A stretch of 64,000 bases of DNA from Ascidiella aspersa (taxonomy: Eukaryota). Under the pieces are notes generated by a model. It was not told the origin of the DNA and did no database searches. It worked only from the letters and a program-made list of their open reading frames with translations. The stretch covers positions 10,106,001-10,170,000 of the forward strand of contig OZ004607.1 of the NCBI GenBank assembly GCA_963924565.1. The letters are read 5' to 3'. Numbering within the stretch: the first letter of the stretch is position 1; every line of letters starts with the position of its first letter. Positions 1-59,800 of the stretch are shown here, in pieces. The position numbers were made by a program, and so were the translations under genes.

Positions 1-95
1 TTCATCCCCATGGCCTAGTTAGTGGAGATTTTTGGTTTAATTAAAAAGCTTAGTTCATCCCCATGGCCTAGTTAGTGGAGATTTTTGGTTTAATT
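1..95. repeat. Direct repeat, 42-bp identical core, 53-bp period
   Basis: TTCATCCCCATGGCCTAGTTAGTGGAGATTTTTGGTTTAATT at 1 and 54. Confidence 0.9.
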
Positions 96-223
96 TATAA
101 CACAAAAACTTAATGAAATCCATTTTTCAATTCTATTTCCTTAATTTCATGTCCCCATATTTTTATTTCAAATATATCAGACATCGCAACTAACATTTCC
201 GCTTTCCGCCATATTTTTTTTAG

Positions 224-394
224 GTTAGTTCGCACTTCATGCCTCACGTGACGTCATCGGACCCCGTCGACCTTGAATCGGAGCTGGCGCAGTACGCCCC
301 CGAGTGTTCGAGCCTGTCGTTACGTCACGAGCTGGAGTACACGTCACTGGCTAGAAGCCAGAATGACGTCAGCGGCGGGTGCGCATCGCAGCAG
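224..394 (+). CDS. CCHC gene exon 1 in window (VSSHFMPHVTSSDPVDLESELAQ...GGCASQQ)
   Basis: TTTTTTTTAG acceptor, 171-nt open frame, CAG|GTAAAT donor. Confidence 0.75.
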
Positions 395-3300
395 GTAAAT
401 TTGTAAATGTTGTGTTCTTGGCATGATCCAAGTAGTTTTATATTTGATCATAAGTCAAAATTAAGGTTTCTTCTGGGGTTTCAAGCAGTTACATTGCCAC
501 TATTTTGTTGTTGGCATGATACAAGTCGTTTTACATTTAACCAAAAGTCAAAATTAAATAGTTTTATTATGGGGTTTCGAGCAGTTGCATTGCCACCGCT
601 TTGTTTTTTACATTGTTGGAGTTTAAACAAACAGAAGTCAATATTAAATTGCTTTGAATCTGGGTTTTGATCTGGACCACGCGGGGTCAGTTAAACCTCA
701 ATTTGTAGTTTTAATTCTGAATTCAGAGACCATTTTTGTGACTTTCTGGACGTCTTTTCGAATCATGAATAAAGGGGATACATTTGTTGAGAGCCAATGG
801 TAGGGGGTTATCATACATAATAGTTAGGGCATCACTAGTTGAAATAGTTTCCCCCTCAATTTTAATATATTTTTTTCGGCCCATTTAGTTTTTTCTCTGG
901 TTGTAGCCAGTTGACTAGAATATTGCACAGAATTCTTTGGGTATTTTTTATTTCATTTGAAATTACAGAATCAATTAACATATCATTTTCTTGCCTTAAA
1001 ATTGCTGGACAGACTGACAACTGTGTATTTGTCCAAAAACACTTTTAACCTGTGTGTCCTAACCGTTGCTCAGTACAACTTCACCCAAACTCAGTTAGTC
1101 ACGTGTGGACGTTAACCCTCGATCACCGTCTCAATATTTTTTTTCAGGAAGAAGGGGGGCAGCTAAGCGTTAACGCGTGCCAATTTCAAATGCCCCCTCA
1201 CCCCCACGACTTCACCCGTTTTCCGGATCCCCTTGCAATGCAGGCTTTGAACCAAAACGCCCCAATGATCCGTCCTATCACCGTATCCACAAGCGCCGCG
1301 CCTTCGCATCCAGACCCAGGCGTCTGCGGCAATTTCGGCTCTCATTTCCCGCAGACTGGTCCGAGCGACCCGGTCTGCGGCAATTTCGTTCCCAATTTCC
1401 CGCCGACCTGCTTGGGCGACTCGGCCTGGGCGCCGCCGGTCAGCGAGGCGGAACGGCAGGCGGTCGAACGGCGTACGCTGCGTTATCTCACGCTCATTCT
1501 GTTCGGCGAGGATTCGCGCGAGTTTATCAACTCGGAAATGTAAGTTGTTTTTTATGTTTTTAATTAAACCTCATTGACAAGAGTTTAGTGCTGGCTGCAG
1601 TTTTTCTTTTATGGAATTATAAACCAGTGGGCCTGTTGCTGTTCCTATCGAATATTAGTGTTTAAAATTTAAAAAACACTTCAATTTTTTGCTGTTTAAT
1701 AATGGTTTGTTTAGCAACGTTTATACAACGTTACCTACACGGGTTGTGATACTTTACCCTTTTTATTATCACAGTATTTATGCTCAAACTGCAATTTCTA
1801 AGGAATTATAACTTATTGAAAAATTGTCCTTATTATCTCATTTTTACGAAAAAGTAGCGTAACACTAAGTAAAAACAGACTTGCCAATCTTAGTTACGAC
1901 ATCTGTAATTGTTTGGTACTACAGTTCTGCTTTCTATTTAATTTGCATTACATAACATTTTGATAAACATTAAACTGTTTGTATGATTATTCACATTTGG
2001 AATGTCCGATAATATCGGATCGGAACCGATACCCGTTGCCAGGGGTTAGTATCGGTACTCGTCCGATTCTAGGGTGGCACCAGAGCCGATCTCGATACCA
2101 AATTATTTTGTGCATTTTAGCCATGTTTTGCGATCCAATGCAGAACTTTGTATTTAAAAAATAAAAAAGAGAAAATGTTACGTTAAAAATCGAATATATA
2201 TAGGCTTCATAATTAAAAGCAAGTTTCTGCCCGATACCCTGAAGGCCTAAACCAAAAGCATTACCATTGCACTGATCAATTTAATTAATTTTGCCTATTT
2301 GACCAAACTAATGACGTCATTTGGTATCGGATCGAATCGCGATACTTTTTTGCCCAATATATCGGTTATCGGTATCACAATAAAACAGTAAGTTTCGGTG
2401 TCTTTGAGATGTCATTTCAACATTTATTTTTTATGCATAAATTATAACTTTCAGCATTCAGGAACCTCCAAACGCAGTGAAGAAGGCTTGGTTAGAGGTG
2501 ATTCACCAGCAGCAGACTTTGTGGTCGCTAGTGCCCAGGCAGCTCTACCAGCACTGCTTGCAATCCGAGGCAAGTCCGTGTTAATTTTTTCCTGGCCAGG
2601 CGTGTATTCATTTTTTCACCAATTAGAAAGGTAAAGGAAGCCACACAAATGTAGCCCGCCAAGGAATATGCGTACATTTATAGCAGGAGTTAATTGCACC
2701 GGCCCGCGGCCGATTTTCTTAATGAAGATGAAGTACAGTTAAAATGCAGTACAGTTTCAATTCCAAACTTAATTTTTATGACATTTTGAACTGCACGATA
2801 TTTTTTAAGGTTCAGGTCAATTTTTGTTGAATAGGTATTTATATGTTTTTGTTTAACGATATTAATTAAGGTAATAAGTTTGTCACAAAATTTTATATCC
2901 GGCCCGCCATCTTAAATGCGTACAGTTATCCGGTTTTGGCCGCGACCCATAGGTTGAGAAACACTGCCTTCGACGAACAAAGGGTTTTTGTCAATTCGGT
3001 TTAATCATAAACAAACAGAAGTCTTTATATGTTATAATTACATATACTTATACCACATTAACATGTGTAACTTAATTCGAGTAAATATAAAACAACAATG
3101 TTAAATAAAACAAGTAAATGTAATAAATAAACACATTAGCATATTAAGCAAAATGTAACTGAACGACCAACAAACTATAGTACAAAGGTTAGGGCTCCTG
3201 ACTGCTTGAAGCGCAAACACAAAGTGAAGGACGAGCTAATATTTAAATCACATGAGCCCAACACATGAACTAAATCGCATGAGAGATAGGAAAACTTAAA

Positions 3301-6300
3301 CAATTTAGATAACTTAACAGTTTTAATTATAAAAAACTATAAAATAAAGTGGCATGTATCACATAACCCAAACTTGACGGTTCACAGATGCAGCGCCTGT
3401 CAGGTTTGCGCGATGAGTTTATGCGCTTTGGCGTTCCCTTCAACATGTATCAGCTGCAAGCCAGGCTGGGATCACAACTGCCCGTCTACCTACACCACTA
3501 CCCCGAACTAAAGGTGTTGTTTTTATTCTCGTGGCAATTTATCTGTAACTTGCACCTAATATGTTAGAGCCTAACTTTTTAAAGCGCCGTGCTTGCATGT
3601 CAAATAATAAATATGACTGATGTTCGTATTTTCATAGTTTTCTAAAACTTCAAATGTGCATAAGGATATACTTTGTCCAAGCAATGAATGTTTGCAAGTT
3701 TTCTATTTGTCTTTTGCCTGCAAGAGAAAACCAATCCACCGTCCGTTAATCGATTCCGGTTCAATTTTTTCATAAGAAATCACGATTTAATTGCTTCATT
3801 TCGTAGTTCAACAACACCAAGTCTTTGAATTTAAGTCCTTTAATAAAACACTGCTTTAACCTATACAATTAAGTTCTATTGCCCACAGGCTGTGCTCGAG
3901 TTGGTGATTAACACTCCTCCGGGGAAATTCCCTCCACGTCACGTGATCGCAAACAACGACACCTTGCGGATTTCGGTCCCGGTTACACCACCTACGTCTT
4001 CAGATCAGGTGCGTGTGTTTAAGATATTCTTCGAGTCTTATGTTTGTGTTGTGTTTTGTTCTAAATATATTTAATGGTGTTCAACCGCGATGTTGTTTCT
4101 GAAGTTCTATTGAAATGTATTTGAATTTTTTTCTCTTTGTGTAGTCATTTTAGTAAAACTGTTTGTGCAACCGTAGATGCAATAATAAATGTTTAAATAA
4201 GCACAGCTGATGTGTGTTGTTCACTTTCGTTTATTGTGCCATTACAGTAAACCACTAAGTAAAAATGTAAATCCCTCCTTGCTTGCTTGCCTTACGCGTA
4301 ACATTTATTAAACCTAGAAATTTTATATTAAGAAGGCTGTTCTTATAATAACGTGTGAATAAAAGTTGTATGTCAACGTTAAACACCCGAATGGCATTTT
4401 ACTCTTCAGACGGAAAATTCCAAAATAAGCGAATGGAGAGCTCTACAAGGTCGTGAACAAAACCAACATCCGAGTTCGTACGAGCAAAGTAACTGCCTAA
4501 GTACAGGTACTTTCACCGTAGACCCCTAAAGCGTATGGTAAAAGTGATTTTTTTATTATTTTAATTCTCATGCCAAAATTTTCAGAAAAAATGATTTACT
4601 TCAATTCTGAACTCATTAAATCGTCTTCTTTAATTGCTATATTTTAGCATTTTAGAAATGCACTTTACTTGATTAGGCCTATGTTGGAAAAACAATGTTA
4701 TCAGTTGGTCTGAGAATTTTTAATGCCCTTATTCGAGAAAAAATATCTAATGCTTGTAAACTCTATACTTACAGGTGGTTTGATATTTAAAAAACAGCAG
4801 TGATAATTTTTTTTAAGAAATGTAAAAAATAAATTGCGACAGAGTGTTTGAAACTTAGTTAAAGCTGAAGTATAAAGAAAAGAATTTAAAACGATGAAAT
4901 TAAAAATATAAAGATAGTCTTCATAACTGAGTGTCTTGATAACTCCTGGGTAAGCGAACTAGCGAACTTGTTGTTTTAATAAAAAAAAAAAAACATAAAA
5001 GTCCCAGCAAATGTGACACCAGTAACGTCGGAATCCGGACCAGCACAGTCAACAGACCGCCACTCTCCCGCCTCTCTTCCCGAGTTTCGAGAAGTTTCGA
5101 ATCTAACGACACCGAAGAAAACCAGCTCGTCGCTAAATGGTTCGTTACATGAAGTATGAATAACATAAAATCTTCTGTTGTTGAACCTTTGATTAACACA
5201 GAGGCATGTTGTAAAATAATATGTCTTTGGACGTTTATGAAGTGTTCCCTCTAAATCAGGGTCCATCAAGCTTTTTCATAAAAGAACGGACAACTGTAAG
5301 GCCTGACCAGCGCTTACCGAATAATTATAATGATTGACGATCGCCAGCCGGATATTAGATTTTGCATCAAATTTATTACTTTGAAAATTTTCAAACGAAG
5401 AAGATATAAACAACCATGCAACAAAAACTGTAGTTATAAGCCTTAATAAATTGTCGAACAGTTTAAAACTTAAAATTTTAACTATACTTCATCTTCATTA
5501 AAGAAATATCCCAGGATGTTAGAATTAACTCTGCGGGCCGGATCTGGCCCGTAGTTTAGTGACCCTGTTATAATTGAACGATTATAGGTATAATTCGTGT
5601 GCGTTGCATTTGTCTGGTTTCGTTTATCTTTTTAAATGGTATACCAGGCAGTTATATACCAATTTTCAAAAAATCTTTCTTCTTAAAATGTCAATAAGCT
5701 AGATGAAGGCTTCTTGATGTAACGGTACATAATTATGATCTTCCATAAGTAGCAAAAAATATATTTTTTTTACTAGACTTAAAAATACGACCGAACAGCG
5801 AACGCTCTTGTTTTACATTAGTTGTTGAATAATAATGTTATTATTTTGTTGCTTAAAGAGGATCTATGCCTGTTCCAACAATGCCAGTTATTTTGATTAG
5901 TTTAAATAAGGTGTCCTGTTCCAAAATCGCCGTGTTAAGCTCTTATGTGTGCTTTTTCTTTATTCGTTTGTTTGTATTGGGTACAAGGTTTTGTTACAGC
6001 GATCACCCGATTATTACGTCACAGGTGACGCGGTCGGTGCGACCTCTTACCCGGGGACTCTCAGCTCGGGGGAAGGCCCCATCAAGCTGCTTGAACGGCC
6101 CAAAGGTAAGCTGAGTTTTTCATAAAAAAACAGAGCCATTACACGGTAGGTTTATCAAGATTTGACGAAAGCACGGCGAAATGGGAATTGATAGCTTTTA
6201 TTTGCAAATTTTCCACTTTCATTTTGCAAATTTTCCACAATTCTTTCTGGTCTAGTTCGTTTTTTTACTGTTGCTTTATTTAACTTTTGGTCTCTTAGTC

Positions 6301-8906
6301 ATAACAACGAATTCAAATTGCTAATATTTTGTCGAAACGACTTTTCACGCATGTGTGTGGATTTTATAGTCTAGCGAAGCACTTTTTTTTTCATTTACAT
6401 GCCTATGAGACTAAATTTTAATTTAAACCAAATTGATTAGGAATAAATAAATGTAATTCTAGTTGGTACTATTGTTTAATTTGAAGTGTTATGAATTCGT
6501 TAATTCTAATTTTAATCTAATTTCGAAAAAAATGGAATGCCTAAATTTTAATTCTTATTTAAATTTTGAAAGCTAAAATAAATATAGTTGTCTGGACATT
6601 ACTTAACTAGTTTATTAGCGCAAAATTATTTCCGTCTTACTGAGGTTTTGCAAATTTCTTACACAATAAGTGTTCCCTTGAAAGTGATAAAATGCGTTTT
6701 TTACGTTTTAAACCGCTTGTATGGCAGAAGCGCCAGTTGCTCCGCCCGCCCAAGAACAGGAGAGCGATTGGCTGGAGGACGAAGAAGAGTTTGATATTCG
6801 GAGCCCCTCTCCTGGATCTGAGCACTCCTCAACAACATCCGGACACGCAAGGTGATGCGCGGCCAAATAAATCACTCTGATTCTAAAAAATTAAATGTAG
6901 AAAGATCGAACGACAATGCACTGAATCGCGTTGTATAAATTATGCGTCCATACTTGTGTTTAGTTAAATTGTGCCAGAGCGGCGGAGCCGAAGTCAGACT
7001 CGGCAATCTGGACTTGACTTTAATTTCGGTCGGAGTTGGATTCACGGATGGGAGTCGAGCTGTTTTAAACCAGGTTGCGAGTCAATTAAAAATAACCCGA
7101 TAAGGACTTCGGACAAAAAAATTACCCGACGGAGTCCAACTTTGCCCAAATGTGCGATTTTGTAGAGTCCCGAGTCCGCCCCCAACTCTACACTGTGTAC
7201 AGCCTGTATTTCACCCAATTACGTAACTAAAATAAGGTGGATATTCAGCAATCCACTCATAGAGGTCTCATACACTTCACCCGCCCGCTACACGTGGTTG
7301 TCGAATATTCAATCTAATGTTATTTGATGTTTAGAATTTACAGTTTGCGGCCTTATCAGTTCCGAAATTTAGTACTGCGCACGTCAGACCCGGGACTCGG
7401 GTCGTCTTACTTCAGTCCCGAGTCTAGCAAGCAAACCGACTCACTCAAATTCCGAGTCCACAACCGCAGCCCTGTTTAACCGAATTCGCAGGCCTGAACT
7501 TTGCTAATTAATAGAAAAAGGCGAATCTAACTACCTTAAAGGTGGATAAATATTTGTTGTGCTTAATGCTGTAATCTGTTTTTTCTTACAAAAAGCTATG
7601 TCGACCGCGTTTTTACAGCTTATCAGTCGCAAATCTTAGATTACGAATTAATTAATTGCCAGTGAATTTATTCTAGATTGCTTGTGACTTTTTTTTTCGT
7701 TCTGTAATTTTTTTCTCGAAAACGTACCATGCCAACTTTATTGTAAAACCAAAATTTTAGGCGTTTAAAATTAATGTAAGCTAAACTTCACATGCCAAAG
7801 TGTTTTAATCCCGCCAACCTCAGTTTAATTTGCAACTGTCGTTAGATCATCGAGGGATCGCATGTCAACAGCAAGTTGCTACAGATGCGGAAATCGCGGC
7901 CACAAGATGTCGTCCTGTCCACAGTCCGAAGGACAAAACAGGCGCAGACCAAACTCGGGAAGGCAAGTCTTAGTTTCTACGGTTATTAGAACCAACCAAA
8001 TCCTCTACCTTCTATTGTTAAGTACCGATACGACCGCTTGGTATCTGATAACAGCTCCAATCCGATTTGTTTGTCATTTTATTTTTTTTAAAACCGGGGA
8101 TGTCTGATACTTGACATTTTATTCCGATATCAATAATTTCGATCCGATACTAAATGACGTCATTGCTATGCTTGAGCAATCAAAAGCTCATTTTCCAGTT
8201 CATTAAGCCACAAATTCATTTAGCGTTAAAAAGTCTAGTTACCTCCAATTGTTAACCTACATTTTTTTTAAATATTCACCTCTCGAGGTAGAAATCGCTG
8301 CGTTAGATCCCAAATCAAGTCTGAAATCCCTTTATTGATTTGGTATCGGACCGGCAGCGGTACCCCTAGTATTGTACGAGTACAAATAGTATTACTTGGC
8401 ATACAATATTGCCGTACGTTTCTATTTATTATAGCTACGGATGCCCGATACTTCATTTTTTATTCCGATACTGATACCCGATATTTTTCACTCAAATAAC
8501 TTCATTACTTACTATGTTGAAGCAATCTAAACAGACAACGTTTTAACGTTAGAAGGTATTTTCCAAGTTACCAGGCGTTAAGAATTCTATTTTCATTCTT
8601 TTGTTCTACAAACAAATTTTAGATGGATCCACCGTTAAAGGTACGCTTTGATGGATCGCAAATAATGGCCGAATTCTTAAATCATTTAGGTTTTATATCT
8701 ATATGCACTACAGCGATACTACCCGCGTATGGTACGAGTACCGTTACTCTAACACTTGGCATCGGGTATCGACCCCGATCCGATATTTTCGGTCATCCCT
8801 TAATTATTTTTTCTTTACTGGAACAATGTTCAGAAATTCGCGAGGCGGCAACAGCAGAAGAAACAGCGGATGGGAGTCTGACCGCGATCGTCGCAACAGG
8901 CGTTAA
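224..8906 (+). CDS. Uncharacterised CCHC zinc-knuckle protein; join(224..394,1148..1539,2455..2569,3388..3513,3889..4008,4410..4506,5008..5153,6000..6105,6728..6851,7846..7962,8834..8906); 5' end may lie upstream of the window, first in-frame ATG at 239
   Basis: Eleven GC-richer segments bounded by AG and GT/GC splice sites join with consistent phases (0,2,0,0,0,1,0,1,2,2) into one 1587-nt open frame ending in TAA at 8904-8906; contains CX2CX4HX4C (CYRCGNRGHKMSSC). Confidence 0.8.
411..670. repeat. Degenerate tandem repeat, ~93-bp unit, ~2.5 copies, intronic
   Basis: TTGGCATGAT.CAAGT...AAGTCAAAATTAA...TGGGGTTTC.AGCAGTT.CATTGCCAC recurs; this explains spurious ORF 407..670. Confidence 0.85.
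1148..1539 (+). CDS. CCHC gene exon 2 (EEGGQLSVNACQFQMP...REFINSE)
   Basis: TTTTTTCAG acceptor, GC-rich open frame within ORF 1052..1543, AT|GTAAGT donor. Confidence 0.88.
1997..2405 (+). mobile_element. MITE family A (TAGGGATG-type termini, many CCGATAC/GTATCGG subrepeats; hAT-like), degenerate
   Basis: Visible similarity to 26799..27181 and, in reverse, to 8096..8801, 20690..20748 and 54359..54460. Confidence 0.7.
2455..2569 (+). CDS. CCHC gene exon 3 (IIQEPPNAVKKAWLEVIH...HCLQSE)
   Basis: TTTCAG acceptor in matching phase 2; GAG|GCAAGT donor (alternative in-phase GAG|GTGATT after 2497). Confidence 0.78.
2690..2966 (-). mobile_element. hAT/Charlie-type MITE remnants
   Basis: Ends GGTTGAGAAACACTG; internal TTAATGAAGATGAAGTACAGTTAAAA is the reverse complement of a segment shared with the copies at 5257 and 14588. 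Confidence 0.6.
3388..3513 (+). CDS. CCHC gene exon 4 (MQRLSGLRDEFMRFG...HYPELK)
   Basis: TTCACAG acceptor, 126-nt open frame, AAG|GT donor. Confidence 0.82.
3889..4008 (+). CDS. CCHC gene exon 5 (AVLELVINTPPGKFPP...SSDQ)
   Basis: CCCACAG acceptor, 120 nt, CAG|GTGCGT donor. Confidence 0.85.
4410..4506 (+). CDS. CCHC gene exon 6 (TENSKISEWRALQG...CLST)
   Basis: CTCTTCAG acceptor, open in phase 0, CAG|GTACTT donor. Confidence 0.72.
5008..5153 (+). CDS. CCHC gene exon 7 (S/T/P-rich linker)
   Basis: CCCAG acceptor (in-frame alternative AAAG| 6 nt upstream), open frame, GAA|GTATGA donor in the phase required by exon 8. Confidence 0.68.
5257..5567 (+). mobile_element. hAT/Charlie-type MITE
   Basis: CAGGGTC...GACCCTG termini, GCGGGCCGGATCTGGCCCG subterminal motif, degenerate 8-bp TSD (CTCTAAAT/TTATAATT). 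Confidence 0.75.
6000..6105 (+). CDS. CCHC gene exon 8 (RSPDYYVTG...PIKLLERPK)
   Basis: TTACAG acceptor, AAG|GTAAGC donor. Confidence 0.8.
6728..6851 (+). CDS. CCHC gene exon 9 (EAPVAPPAQEQESDWLEDEEEF...GHAR)
   Basis: GGCAG acceptor in phase 1, acidic low-complexity peptide, AAG|GTGATG donor. Confidence 0.8.
6975..7474 (+). mobile_element. MITE family C (CAGGGCTGCGGAGTC-type termini, GGAGTC/GACTCC subrepeats)
   Basis: CAGAGCGGCGGAG...CCGCAGCCCTG termini; related pieces at ~39368, ~42660-42830 (reverse) and ~62455. Confidence 0.7.
7846..7962 (+). CDS. CCHC gene exon 10, zinc knuckle at 7877..7918
   Basis: GTTAG acceptor in phase 2; SCYRCGNRGHKMSSCP; AAG|GCAAGT donor. Confidence 0.85.
8096..8801 (-). 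mobile_element. Two adjacent family-A MITE copies (~8096-8410 and 8436-8801) in the last intron
   Basis: GGGATG.C.GATACTT...ATTCCGATA occurs twice; ends CCGATATTTTCGGTCATCCCT. Confidence 0.7.
8834..8906 (+). CDS. CCHC gene last coding exon (RNSRGGNSRRNSGWESDRDRRNRR*)
   Basis: TTCAG acceptor in phase 2, R/G/S-rich peptide, TAA followed by a T-rich UTR-like tract. Confidence 0.75.
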
Positions 8907-9523
8907 AAGCGGCAAAACTGGACAAAAAATAAACCAAATCTTTGCTCGTGTGCCCTAAACACTTTACTGCCATCCTTTGAAGCTGCGTTGCTGTTTTTGT
9001 TTTTCTTTGTTCTTTCGTTGTTGGTAGTTTACCATGTTGTTGTCTGCGGTTCGTTTCTGTAAGTTTTAGTTGGCCGAAGCCTTTCTTTCGTTCTGTTGAC
9101 TTCGTATTTTCCGCCCCCACTTAATATTGTGCACCACGTTTCGTTTTCAAATTCAACACAATCTTGTCGCTGGTCAACAGTAATTTGTTCTTTAATTGTG
9201 TTTTTTAAAGTTCAGTTTTGCATTTGTTTGCTGTATGCTTGAAGCTTGTGTTATTTCACGACTGTTTTTTTTTTCTTTACAAAATATAGTGACCTTCACT
9301 AAAATATCGGTTTGTGGCCTTTTTCTATAATTGTAAACGTAATATCGAACGAAAAATTATGACAAAAGCCATTATGACACGTTTAATTTGAATTTTTTCA
9401 AACACTGTTTTTTTCGTTTGTTTTTGGTGTTTCTTTTACCACTTCTTTGTTTTTACGTTTCTTTCGTTTTTGGTGTTCCATTTCTTAAATGCACCCTGAG
9501 TTATTTTTGGATTTCGTCTGCCG

Positions 9524-9529
9524 AATAAA
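9524..9529 (+). terminator. Probable polyadenylation signal AATAAA of the CCHC gene (a proximal AATAAA also at 8928)
   Basis: AATAAA closes the ~600-nt T/G-rich tract after the stop codon. Confidence 0.45.
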
Positions 9530-10389
9530 TGTCACGTACTGAAGTTGAGTGTAAAGCATCTTTCATTTGCAAGTTCTGCCATATTAGTCTTTGTATTAAA
9601 CATTGTTTAAGGGTAAATTGTAATTTCACTATTTTTTCATAACCCTGTCCACCAGACAAGGTGTCTTAAACATGATCTGAAATTCTCGCACTAAGCGCCG
9701 ATTTTAGTGCTTTCTAAATAATCTATTTCAGAAAACCTTGGCTCAGGTAAGACGGTTTATTAATGTCTCGTCGAATATTTTTCATCTAACACTTGTTTTC
9801 TTGTTTTTTATTAGGTTTAAAAGAGCCGGAAAAACTGATGTGAAAAGGAAAAAAAGCACTTTTATTCACCGCCCTTTCTGTCTTTCCTGTTAAATTAACA
9901 GTGGGATTCGTCCAGTGAAATTTCGGATTAAACCTGTCGACACTTTGGGCAAGCTTGGAAGGCATTGAAAGGTAATATATATGTTTTATTTAGTTTCGTT
10001 ACATCCACTAACATTATCGAGCAAAATTGATTTACCGAACCGATTTCTCGATAACCCTAGATTTGCTTTTAACAGTATATGTCCATATTCTGCAGGGGTT
10101 TGTTTTGTTTAACTTTTCATAGTAAAACGCCATAATATTGAATGTTTAATTTTGTTTAATAAGGTAACAATTTAAGTTTAATTTGCCTTAATGCTAAAAG
10201 AGAAAGCAAACCTAATTCAAAATGACATAGTTTCGCATTTGCAATGTTGTGTTTAGTGAGGTGTGTGACAAGCACAGCAGCTAGTTCACATTAGGTTTGT
10301 GATGTTTGTTTAACAAAATTTGTATTGTTTAACAAAAAAATGGTCAAAGCTGAATATAAGTGAATATACTGTTGCTGCCAGGCATTATA

Positions 10390-10485
10390 TCAATTATAAA
10401 GAGGGTTTTTCTGACAAAAAAACAAAAAAACAAAAAACGTCGGCACAGAATAAATATTTGTCAGAAGAACCCGCTTTATAATTGA
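10390..10485. repeat. Inverted repeat, 29-bp arms with 2 mismatches, 38-nt A-rich loop
   Basis: TCAATTATAAAGAGGGTTTTTCTGACAAA / TTTGTCAGAAGAACCCGCTTTATAATTGA. Confidence 0.85.
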
Positions 10486-56800: not shown

Positions 56801-59800
56801 CTATAGGTTGTAAGGGTCAATAAAGCGCCTATTTCCTCCTAATCAGCTGTCGGCTCTTCTGGCAATGGCGGCGAGTCCATGCAATCCATTTATGGTAAAA
56901 AGAATCTGATTTGAAACCGGAATTCTGACCTAAAATGTCGTCCAACTGAGATTCGCTTTCCCGAAAACTTTGTCGAAGCGCGAACACAATCGAATTCGCA
57001 CATGAGAGGCGTTCGATTCGTTTTCCTTTGTGGGCAAATACTGCGTAAGCTAGAGAAATGTCGGAATAAAAAAGTCATGCGTTTGCTACAAAACACTTTG
57101 AGCAAGATAATTATTCTCCATTTACCCCTGGTGCTTGACTATGGCGGTTTTGTGTCAGGGGTCTCTTTTGAGATAAACGTTTCTATACTCTTGTCGGTAG
57201 GTATAGGAGATGATATGCAAACGTGAGCCCGATTCGTGTGCCTACGTAATACCAAGTGCAAAGTCCGACGTACAAACTAAACAATACGCACCAGGCATGT
57301 TTATGAAATCCGGGCTACTGCAGCTTCCTCGTGCGTGTGATACTGTCGACGATGTCGTTTTAAGTAACCCGGGCTGTACAGACACGAAATCTGCGGTTAG
57401 TTATCAAATTTTCTTCACCTAGGTCCTAAGGCGAAAACGCTCAACTGCTGCCAAAAAGCGGCTGGGACGATTTACATACAAATACTGTTTTTTTAGAATA
57501 ATATCGTGTCGTGCGTATCAAACCCTTTAGCCGGTTTACCATTTTCCGACCAGCTTTTTAGTTTGACCTTTTTATGAAGTTTTTATGAAGTTGGGTGCAA
57601 ATTTATGAAGTTGGGTGAAAAAAGGGGACTGACGGCTTTTAAATGTCGTGTAAGCCACCTAAGGGCTTATACAAATGTCAAAAAAGTTTTGGAAACAGTC
57701 GCAAAAACCAGACCCATTCGGTTAAAAAGAGGCAAATTCAAGTACTTTTGTTTGAAAACTGGAGCCATGCCGTTGAGATAGCGGTCATTGGACTGGCGCA
57801 GTAAATAAAAAAAACCTTTTAAAATCCTGCTTGGCGCTTTCAGCTTATGTAATCTGGCCTATATGGCGGAAACAGGACCGAATATACAAAACACATACAG
57901 ACACGCGCACATAACCTCCTCGTTTATTTACGTGTTTTGCCCAGAACAACGGGCTATTCGTTACAGCGAATCGCTCAGCTCAAAAGCCGTATCTGCCAAA
58001 AAAGAAAGAATCGGCCCGGTTCAAAACGCCCTAGGCGCTCAAGGCATGTTAGGCTAATTGCGACCTAGAAACGCCGATTTAGGCTCGCTGCAATTAATTT
58101 TGCGGAATAGCCAGCCATCATGCGCTTAACTTCAATAGGCTTCTGTGCTCGAGTCCGCAAATTGCCAGTCTTCTGCTTGTTGTGGCTCTTCGCAGAGAAG
58201 CCGGCGGTTTTTTTAGTTGGACACTTGACTTGAAATGCCGAATGCAGCTGGCCGACATTTTAAGCTTGCCTTTTTGCCGGTTTAATTTCGATTTCTATAG
58301 GTGCCCTGACACGTTAAAATGCGCGAAATTTTGCTGCAGAATTAACGTGAGCGCTTTTAAATGCCGCTAACTCAATTGCGTCTTTGCCACTGAAGTTACT
58401 TGAAACGTCCTTTTGGTAACTGCCGATGTTAACTAAATAAAAGCAAAAAATACAAGAAAAAAGTTATCTTGTGAATTCCTGCTGGTTTATCTAAAGATGA
58501 TTTTTTAAATACCTTTTTGACAACAAAGTGGTAAAATATTCACTGTTTAAGGTTCAAAGGCACCAAATTACGATCCAATATTATCAGATATCCCTGGTTT
58601 ATATAGCAATAAAATATACATTATTGGACAACCCTAACAATTTTTATCACGTGTAGGTGATTCACTGGCCCTCGGACAAGGCTGACATCGACTTATGCCA
58701 CAACAAGGGAAAGTCGGAGCTCCAGTGCCACAACTACGTGAAGATCTTTGAGCCGCTCACCAGAGCCGACCACACGGCGATCGCTTGCGGAACGAACTCG
58801 TTCAAAGCGCAGTGCAAGTACTTTAAGGTAGGGCGATTTAAAATATTAGGAGCCACGATGTTGTTTCATCTATTTGTGGAAAGCTTGAATGATTTCGGCT
58901 TACTTTTTTATTTTGTGTTCGGGGAAGCACCTAAAACGGAAGCGTTGTCAAACGAAAAACAATCCAATGCGACAGAAAATATTCGATGTTTGTGTTTTTT
59001 ATTAAAAAAATTATGCAAAAATATATAAGAAAAAATAATCATCCCGAAAAACGAAGACTTTTTTTGGTCTTACTAAAACATTTCTTTAATTATTAAAAAT
59101 AAATAAAAAAGATCAATTTTGTGTATGTGTGTTCTTTTTAGGAGATCCAAAGTTTATCTTTGCCATAAATGATTGCTTATTTTCTGTGTGTTTATAGTGA
59201 AAACAATTGGGTTCCTATAGGAGTCGTTCTTATAAGTTATTAAAATTACATCACTTTTAGCTAAATTGTTTATATCCATGCTTTTAATTGCGTGTTTTTA
59301 TAATGTTATTTACCATTAGTAGAACTTTTCTATACCCAGACCGAGACTCAGACATGACTTACTCATTTCACGTTAAAACAAATACTTTAAAAAAAAACCT
59401 ATTCTGATAAATAAAACGTTGTAGCCTGAATAGGCGTTGTCATGGAAAGTTGTACAGAACACGACTGTATTCGGTTATATAATATTAGTAAATAAAACAC
59501 AGTCCAGCCTAAATTCAATAGAATATTATTCCATGAATCGCCTTGATCTTTGTTTAATTTATATACTTACAGCCTAAACCAGTCTAGACATTGAAAGCTG
59601 TAAACTATTAAGTACGTTAATAAATCACAAGTCAGGGAATCGTTTAATTCGCTATTTATTTTCTTTGCGGTTGTTCGCTTCATAAAAAAAATTCACGGTT
59701 TCCTTTCTCGACTTGAGCAGAAGCTGGCCAACGATGACTGGGAGATGACTCCATCGCAGACCAAGATTGGGAGCACGGCTTGCTCGTTCGATCCAGATGT

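Follow-up and report, generated by a model that had tools for sequence, protein, structure and literature searches.

RNF17/TDRD4 and Drosophila Qin/Kumo combine a RING domain with two B-boxes, a coiled coil, and Tudor domains. TRIM/RBCC proteins, among them the RNA-regulating TRIM-NHL proteins Brat and LIN-41, place a B-box and a coiled coil at the N terminus, and ZCCHC14/GLS-1, Vasa/GLH, and CNBP are marked by a SAM or DEAD-box domain or by tandem knuckles. We describe here a gene of the ascidian Ascidiella aspersa that resembles each of these groups in part and, on sequence comparison, is outside all of them and outside the SUZ group. Its last exons occupy positions 224–8906 (plus strand) of a 64,000-nucleotide stretch of the genome, referred to below as the window (assembly GCA_963924565.1, contig OZ004607.1, positions 10,106,001–10,170,000 of the forward strand).

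What the predicted protein shares with RNF17 and Qin is a B-box of type 1, a coiled coil after it, and, possibly, a Tudor-like domain. It lacks a RING, a second B-box, and a detectable Tudor array; a PAM2-like motif, a helical core, and a CCHC knuckle are present instead. With TRIM/RBCC proteins, including the TRIM-NHL proteins, it has in common the N-terminal B-box and coiled coil and a likely RNA-binding C terminus; it differs in having no RING, in the insertion of 9–12 residues within its single B-box, and in having no NHL, filamin, or SPRY domain detectable with Pfam. Like ZCCHC14/GLS-1, Vasa/GLH, and CNBP, it carries a CX2CX4HX4C knuckle close to a basic C terminus; unlike them, it has no SAM domain, DEAD-box domain, or repeated knuckles (Pfam scans covering 25 of the 27 exons and the orthologue found none).

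We tentatively favor the reading that the product is a RING-less, TRIM/Qin-like, dimeric cytoplasmic messenger ribonucleoprotein (mRNP) scaffold that would link RNA to poly(A)-binding protein (PABP), and we hold it with slightly less than even confidence. What is new is an undescribed domain arrangement, two domains without a family assignment, and a testable PABP link, not a new system. The first-pass annotation, made from the window sequence, had spoken of an undescribed system; this was overstated, because the locus encodes a single uncharacterized protein, and UniRef and nr already contain its orthologue.

Gene structure and the Phallusia orthologue

The locus had been annotated as an 11-exon gene or, alternatively, as the 3' half of a longer gene that starts upstream, and inspection of the upstream sequence was proposed. 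The second description is the one that stands. Base 224 is a splice acceptor with the frame open upstream of it, and 16 further in-phase, stop-free exons lie 0.4–15.5 kb upstream of the window (positions 10090500–10105604 of the contig, C1), the last of them ending 396 bases before it. The full model has 27 exons and encodes 1,221 residues from an ATG 15.5 kb ahead of the window; the exons in the window are exons 17–27, the 3' 43% of the predicted gene.

The orthologue is a Phallusia mammillata protein of 1,159 residues, entered as "uncharacterized protein LOC100180335" (UniRef100_A0A6F9DH94, CAB3262557.1), a number that was presumably borrowed from a Ciona gene. The two proteins are collinear over their whole length and align from the first Met to the last residue, with 411 of 1255 columns identical (33%). 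Identity is 55% in the B-box region, 54% in the core (residues 855–975), and 25%–26% in the linkers; the Phallusia protein differs in having no IKLLERP motif in register. When it was compared with the genome (a 308.6-Mb assembly of 75 contigs), all 10 matches fell at this locus, in order. Because the orthologue is collinear from end to end and all 10 genome matches lie at one locus, we conclude that the predicted exons form one single-copy gene. A BLASTP-type check for a full-length known match had also been proposed, and such a match now exists, but the Phallusia protein is itself uncharacterized: it confirms the gene and does not explain its function.

The homologue searches gave no further relative. 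A phmmer search with the 42-residue exon 20 against 1.84 billion representatives returned seven matches, one of them the Phallusia protein, which matches the whole exon at 60%. The other six were discarded because their matches were sums over repeats; three were read and proved to be tandem repeats (two of these are named Toxoplasma hypothetical proteins), and three were dropped on stretch counts alone. Word-index searches confirmed none of 144 candidates with exon 18 and recovered only the orthologue itself with its residues 815–965 (1 of 60 candidates) and 1–112 (1 of 32). Two metagenome scans gave 235 and 162 pattern matches with no relative confirmed, the ESM Atlas gave no usable match to two short exons, and searches of Protein Data Bank (PDB) sequences gave nothing below E 0.4. 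The family, with two sequences so far, is likely restricted to ascidians. The Phallusia protein is the only true relative found, and the restriction itself is not proven, because the homologue searches were insensitive. We found no paper on LOC100180335 or on the domain combination in a literature search that left subscription papers, supplements, and Ciona KH/KY model identifiers outside its scope.

Within the window, the 11 exons splice in phase to 523 residues and a stop codon with no internal stop, which agrees with the approximately 525 residues first predicted. All acceptors are AG; eight donors are GT and two are GC (2569 and 7962, in 2 of the 10 window introns, the first backed by reads). 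The GC content is 56% in exons versus 34% in introns. The RNA-seq mapping that had been called for was performed with one run bearing the same species label, about 6% of which was read, yielding 248 reads on bases 1–12000 of the window. Spliced reads cross 4 of the 10 junctions at the three-read threshold used for listing: 2569>3388 (three reads), 3513>3889 (three), 4008>4410 (six), and 4506>5023 (four). These reads settle the position of two splice sites, the GC donor at 2569 and the acceptor at 5023. Over the exon bins the first mates map to the minus strand, and with most stranded libraries this points to a plus-strand RNA. Depth on the same strand continues through the 9201–9600 bin, with none at 9601–10000. 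The joint 5153>6000 has an in-frame alternative, 5139>6025, and neither the reads nor the orthologue choose between them. The features, in order, are as follows.

1–223, plus strand: end of intron 16, where the gene enters the window; 16 coding exons (residues 1–698) lie upstream
224–394, plus strand: exon 17 of 27, internal, phase 0/0, first in the window; bin depth 1.83
1148–1539, plus strand: exon 18, with the PAM2-like motif, a Pro-rich linker, and the start of the helical core; covered by reads
1163–1195, plus strand: PAM2-like motif LSVNACQFQMP; LSANASQFQMP in the orthologue, 9/11 identical
1463–3912, plus strand: conserved helical core, residues 861–974, in exons 18–21; conserved in the orthologue
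2455–2569, plus strand: exon 19, with a GC donor; joint to 3388 in three reads
3388–3513, plus strand: exon 20; 60% identical to the orthologue, with reads
3889–4008, plus strand: exon 21; reads at both joints
4410–4506, plus strand: exon 22, an S/T-rich linker; reads at both joints
5023–5153, plus strand: exon 23, with RHSPASLPE at 5058–5084 (9/9 identical in the orthologue); acceptor fixed by four reads
6000–6105, plus strand: exon 24, with IKLLERP at 6081–6101 (not conserved in register); alternative acceptor 6025
6728–6851, plus strand: exon 25, with the acidic-aromatic motif DWLEDEEEF at 6766–6792 (8/9 identical in the orthologue)
7846–7962, plus strand: exon 26, with a GC donor and the CX2CX4HX4C knuckle at 7877–7918; PF00098 match
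8834–8906, plus strand: coding part of exon 27, with the Arg/Gly/Ser-rich tail and a TAA stop; placed by the in-phase chain
8907–9600, plus strand: 3' untranslated region; same-strand read depth, with candidate poly(A) hexamers at 9524 and 9595

Two stretches of intron (about 2002–2349 and 8107–8487) contain repeat copies to which reads map in both orientations, with joints on the opposite strand and numerous loose ends; they are probably a short inverted-repeat mobile element that is common in the genome. The intronic bins 5601–6000 and 7201–7600 have low same-strand depth (0.71 and 0.79), which could reflect pre-mRNA, repeats, or a minor exon.

The N-terminal half and the RNF17/Qin comparison

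From the N to the C terminus, the predicted protein consists of a B-box-1-like finger, a predicted coiled coil, a domain at residues ~250–510, an acidic linker, the PAM2-like motif, the helical core, one CCHC knuckle, and an Arg-rich tail. The finger spans residues 10–61, with ligands C10, C13, C22, C25, C45, C48, H53, and H61 in B-box-1 spacing. A profile made from 10 B-boxes of this genome scored it at 17.6 bits, a value that none of 2000 shuffles reached, and scored the orthologue at 7.5 bits (7 of 2000 shuffles as high). The Pfam zf-B_box model matched exon 2 at E 0.049, below the Pfam cut-offs. Pfam found no RING in either protein, and both proteins start about 10 residues before the B-box. 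A coiled coil is predicted at residues ~105–245, and the AlphaFold2 model of the orthologue places long helices at residues 105–214. This block has a predicted local distance difference test score (pLDDT) of 44–74 and is the sole part of the model that lies mostly above 55. The TRIM/RBCC pattern is therefore seen in the predicted coiled coil after the B-box and not in a RING.

A Tudor/LOTUS protein had been suggested as the identity of the larger gene. We looked for each domain by four methods, none of which gave a significant result. The Tudor family PF00567 has 36 matches in the genome, none of them at this locus, and Pfam found none in the orthologue; hmmsearch was likewise negative for Tudor. 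Judged by eye, residues 250–480 contain motifs in the order of an extended Tudor domain, and one hhalign run placed 76 columns in that register; 14 of 60 shuffles in one hhalign comparison and 43 of 100 in another scored as high or higher. A glocal Tudor profile gave z 1.4 (17 of 200 shuffles as high), and 19 of 19 real Tudor domains gave z 9.4–33.6 with it. Positions of the aromatic cage are mostly not aromatic in the by-eye register, and pLDDT is about 30 across residues 250–480 of the orthologue model. The profile tests (z 1.4 for Tudor and z 0.5 for LOTUS, the latter given below) do not support the suggested identity. In the N-terminal half, a predicted coil and a domain without a family assignment follow the B-box-1-like finger.

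These results bear on the alternative that we place next after the mRNP scaffold, which it partly overlaps, namely, that the gene is a degenerate RNF17/Qin paralogue of the nuage/PIWI-interacting RNA (piRNA) pathway. Such a paralogue would have acquired an RNA-binding tail and, of the ancestral parts, kept B-box 1, the coil, and one eroded extended Tudor domain (residues 250–480) but not the RING. PMC6411831 describes a Tudor domain of atypical form whose aromatic cage is eroded, and it names Qin/Kumo as a piRNA factor. The order of B-box 1, coil, and a domain with motifs in extended-Tudor order by eye is consistent with this origin, and 33% identity to the orthologue fits a fast-evolving gene. 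The B-box also aligns with B-box 1 of an RNF17/Qin-like gene on contig C6 with a score of 52 (1 of 1000 shuffles; the orthologue scores 35, 41 of 1000), but this similarity is generic to type-1 B-boxes. None of the Tudor tests (PF00567, hmmsearch, hhalign, and glocal profile) was significant, and the mostly nonaromatic cage positions argue against an eroded Tudor domain as well. The gene on C6 (13039431–13054008), which encodes a RING, two B-boxes, and several Tudor domains and is followed by what by eye is an RFC-like clamp-loader gene, has the RNF17/Qin architecture and is likely the RNF17/Qin orthologue. The protein studied here has one B-box and no RING, and it gave no PF00567 match, the rest of it being low-complexity sequence or helical core. 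We consider descent from RNF17/Qin possible but unlikely. Genes that combine LOTUS and Tudor domains are found elsewhere in the genome, on C9 and C3.

The PAM2-like motif, the helical core, and the knuckle

The PAM2-like motif, IKLLERP, the acidic motif, and the knuckle named by the first-pass annotation are all present in the sequence. In the alignment with the orthologue, three islands stand out in the 523 linker columns, each with 9 or more identities within 11 columns (LSVNACQFQMP, RHSPASLPE, and DW[LI]EDEEEF); none of 2000 column shuffles gave three islands, a statistic that ignores alignment optimization and rests on two sequences.

As defined in PMC2854688, the PAM2 motif has a hydrophobic residue at position 3, N or S at 4, P, V, or T at 5, A at 7, and F at 10, with the Ala and Phe invariant and Pro at 12 usual but not invariant. 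The window motif fits positions 3, 4, 5, 7, and 10 (L3-S4-V5-A7-F10). A PAM2-type pattern, written after the motif had been seen, occurred in 0.16% and 0.24% of 5000 linker shuffles. The PAM2 proteins Tob, PAN3, eRF3, Paip2, and Ataxin-2, as described in PMC2854688, have in common with the predicted protein the arrangement L3-S4-V5-x-A7-x-x-F10 in a disordered linker; they differ from it in that its Pro is at 13 rather than 12, its motif falls below Pfam detection, and no other domain is shared. The proposed link to PABP gains indirectly from the conservation of this motif within a linker that is ~26% identical and from its fit to the published positions; Pro at 13 and the missing Pfam PAM2 match count the other way, and binding is only predicted. 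MLLE domains are encoded in the genome. Three near-identical MLLE exons (87.3–87.5 bits) lie within 83 kb at C3:38304852–38387806, which suggests duplicated PABP genes or an assembly duplication.

The core of SUZ-type proteins has the form IxILKRP, and IKLLERP had been likened to it. A pattern of the IKLLERP type occurred in 1.1% of 5000 shuffles, the orthologue has IILKR aligning about 30 residues earlier, and Pfam found no SUZ match. We dropped the SUZ reading because IKLLERP is not in register in the orthologue and its pattern arises in shuffles at this rate.

The core (residues 861–974) is all-helical in the AlphaFold2 model, with pLDDT 49.7, and gave no Pfam, PDB-sequence, or fold match. 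The LOTUS/OST-HTH family PF12872 has eight matches in the genome, none at this locus. A five-sequence LOTUS profile gave z 0.5 on the core (57 of 200 shuffles as high), which is a weak test because leave-one-out controls, reaching z 12 at best, ran down to z 1.7. A capsid (Gag) origin of the core and knuckle was set aside: the gene has 26 introns, 195 residues separate the two elements, and no capsid appeared among the fold results.

The single CX2CX4HX4C knuckle and the basic R/G/S tail were correctly described at first pass. The knuckle matches PF00098 at 22.6 bits versus a cut-off of 20.8, and the same pattern occurs in the orthologue. The last 63 residues include 17 R, 12 S, and 7 G, and both species retain the Arg-rich tail as well as the knuckle.

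Proposed function and alternatives

If the protein is an mRNP scaffold, the B-box and coiled coil would dimerize it, by analogy with TRIM and Qin proteins, and in each arm of the dimer the knuckle and basic tail would hold single-stranded RNA. The PAM2-like motif would dock on the MLLE domain of PABP, and partners that determine translation or the fate of the poly(A) tail would be brought in by the two further folded domains together with the acidic W/F motif. The protein may work like an RNA-regulating TRIM.

Several points weigh against this reading, in addition to the limits on the island and shuffle statistics given above. Single knuckles also bind proteins, and the roles proposed throughout are carried over from known families. 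The whole orthologue gave no Pfam match to a B-box or a knuckle at E up to 1. The upstream 16 exons rest on the in-phase AG/GT chain and on collinearity with the orthologue, the RNA-seq having covered bases 1–12000 of the window, and in that run 6 of the 10 joints within the window did not reach the listing threshold of three reads. In both species, Met occupies position 12 of the PAM2-like motif and Pro position 13; the motif also has Gln at 9 and gave no match to Pfam PAM2 (PF07145). The orthologue has Ala at position 5, a residue that cut affinity 5-fold in Paip2 (PMC2854688).

The readings are listed in the order mRNP scaffold, RNF17/Qin paralogue, signaling adaptor, structural scaffold, and two genes. 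We think it improbable that the protein is a TRIM-like adaptor without a RING that acts in ubiquitin signaling or innate-immune signaling, in which the core would be a death-fold-like interaction module and the knuckle would bind protein. Still less probable is a structural coiled-coil scaffold of the centrosome, cilium, or cortex with incidental motifs and no mRNA role. Type-1 B-boxes do occur in centrosomal and ciliary proteins, and the motif conservation rests on only two sequences, but the knuckle, the Arg-rich tail, and the PAM2-like motif are kept while the surrounding linkers are ~26% identical. It is very improbable that the window exons form a gene of their own that begins at the in-frame ATG at 239 and does not include the upstream exons: the RNA evidence covers joints of the window only, but the acceptor at 224 is strong, with the frame open into the ATG, and a single Phallusia protein is collinear with both halves.

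Ascidian eggs are a classic system for localized maternal mRNAs, and to our knowledge few proteins that hold and switch these mRNAs have been described. A role of the mRNP scaffold in oocyte or germ-plasm granules is our guess by analogy; nothing in these data points to the germline. We are doubtful of a more far-reaching version, an ascidian-born germ-plasm scaffold in which a RING-less Qin-like N terminus (B-box, coil, and cage-less Tudor), a PABP motif, a new helical domain, and the knuckle would physically join the nuage/piRNA machinery to the control of maternal mRNAs through their poly(A) tails. The domains at residues 250–510 and 861–974 may represent new families. If the mRNP scaffold reading is true, a conserved single-copy protein with a dimerizing B-box and coil, PABP docking, and an RNA knuckle would be a direct candidate for knockout; should the RNA role fail, the locus is one more lineage-restricted uncharacterized gene.

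Upstream of the window, an intron of the gene contains a tRNA-like or SINE-like (short interspersed nuclear element) inverted pair and a third copy (piece L002, 2940–3210 and 5430–5510). The adjoining upstream gene (piece L004, 6460–7641) ends in an SH3 domain (Pfam SH3_9) and, as we judge by eye, presumably resembles the C terminus of PACSIN/syndapin. Downstream in the window, a frame at 58657–59028 includes what we take by eye to be a semaphorin-like stretch, and six tRNA-Asp(GTC) genes lie on the minus strand at 12192–13766, in two tandem groups with a spacing of ~190 bases.

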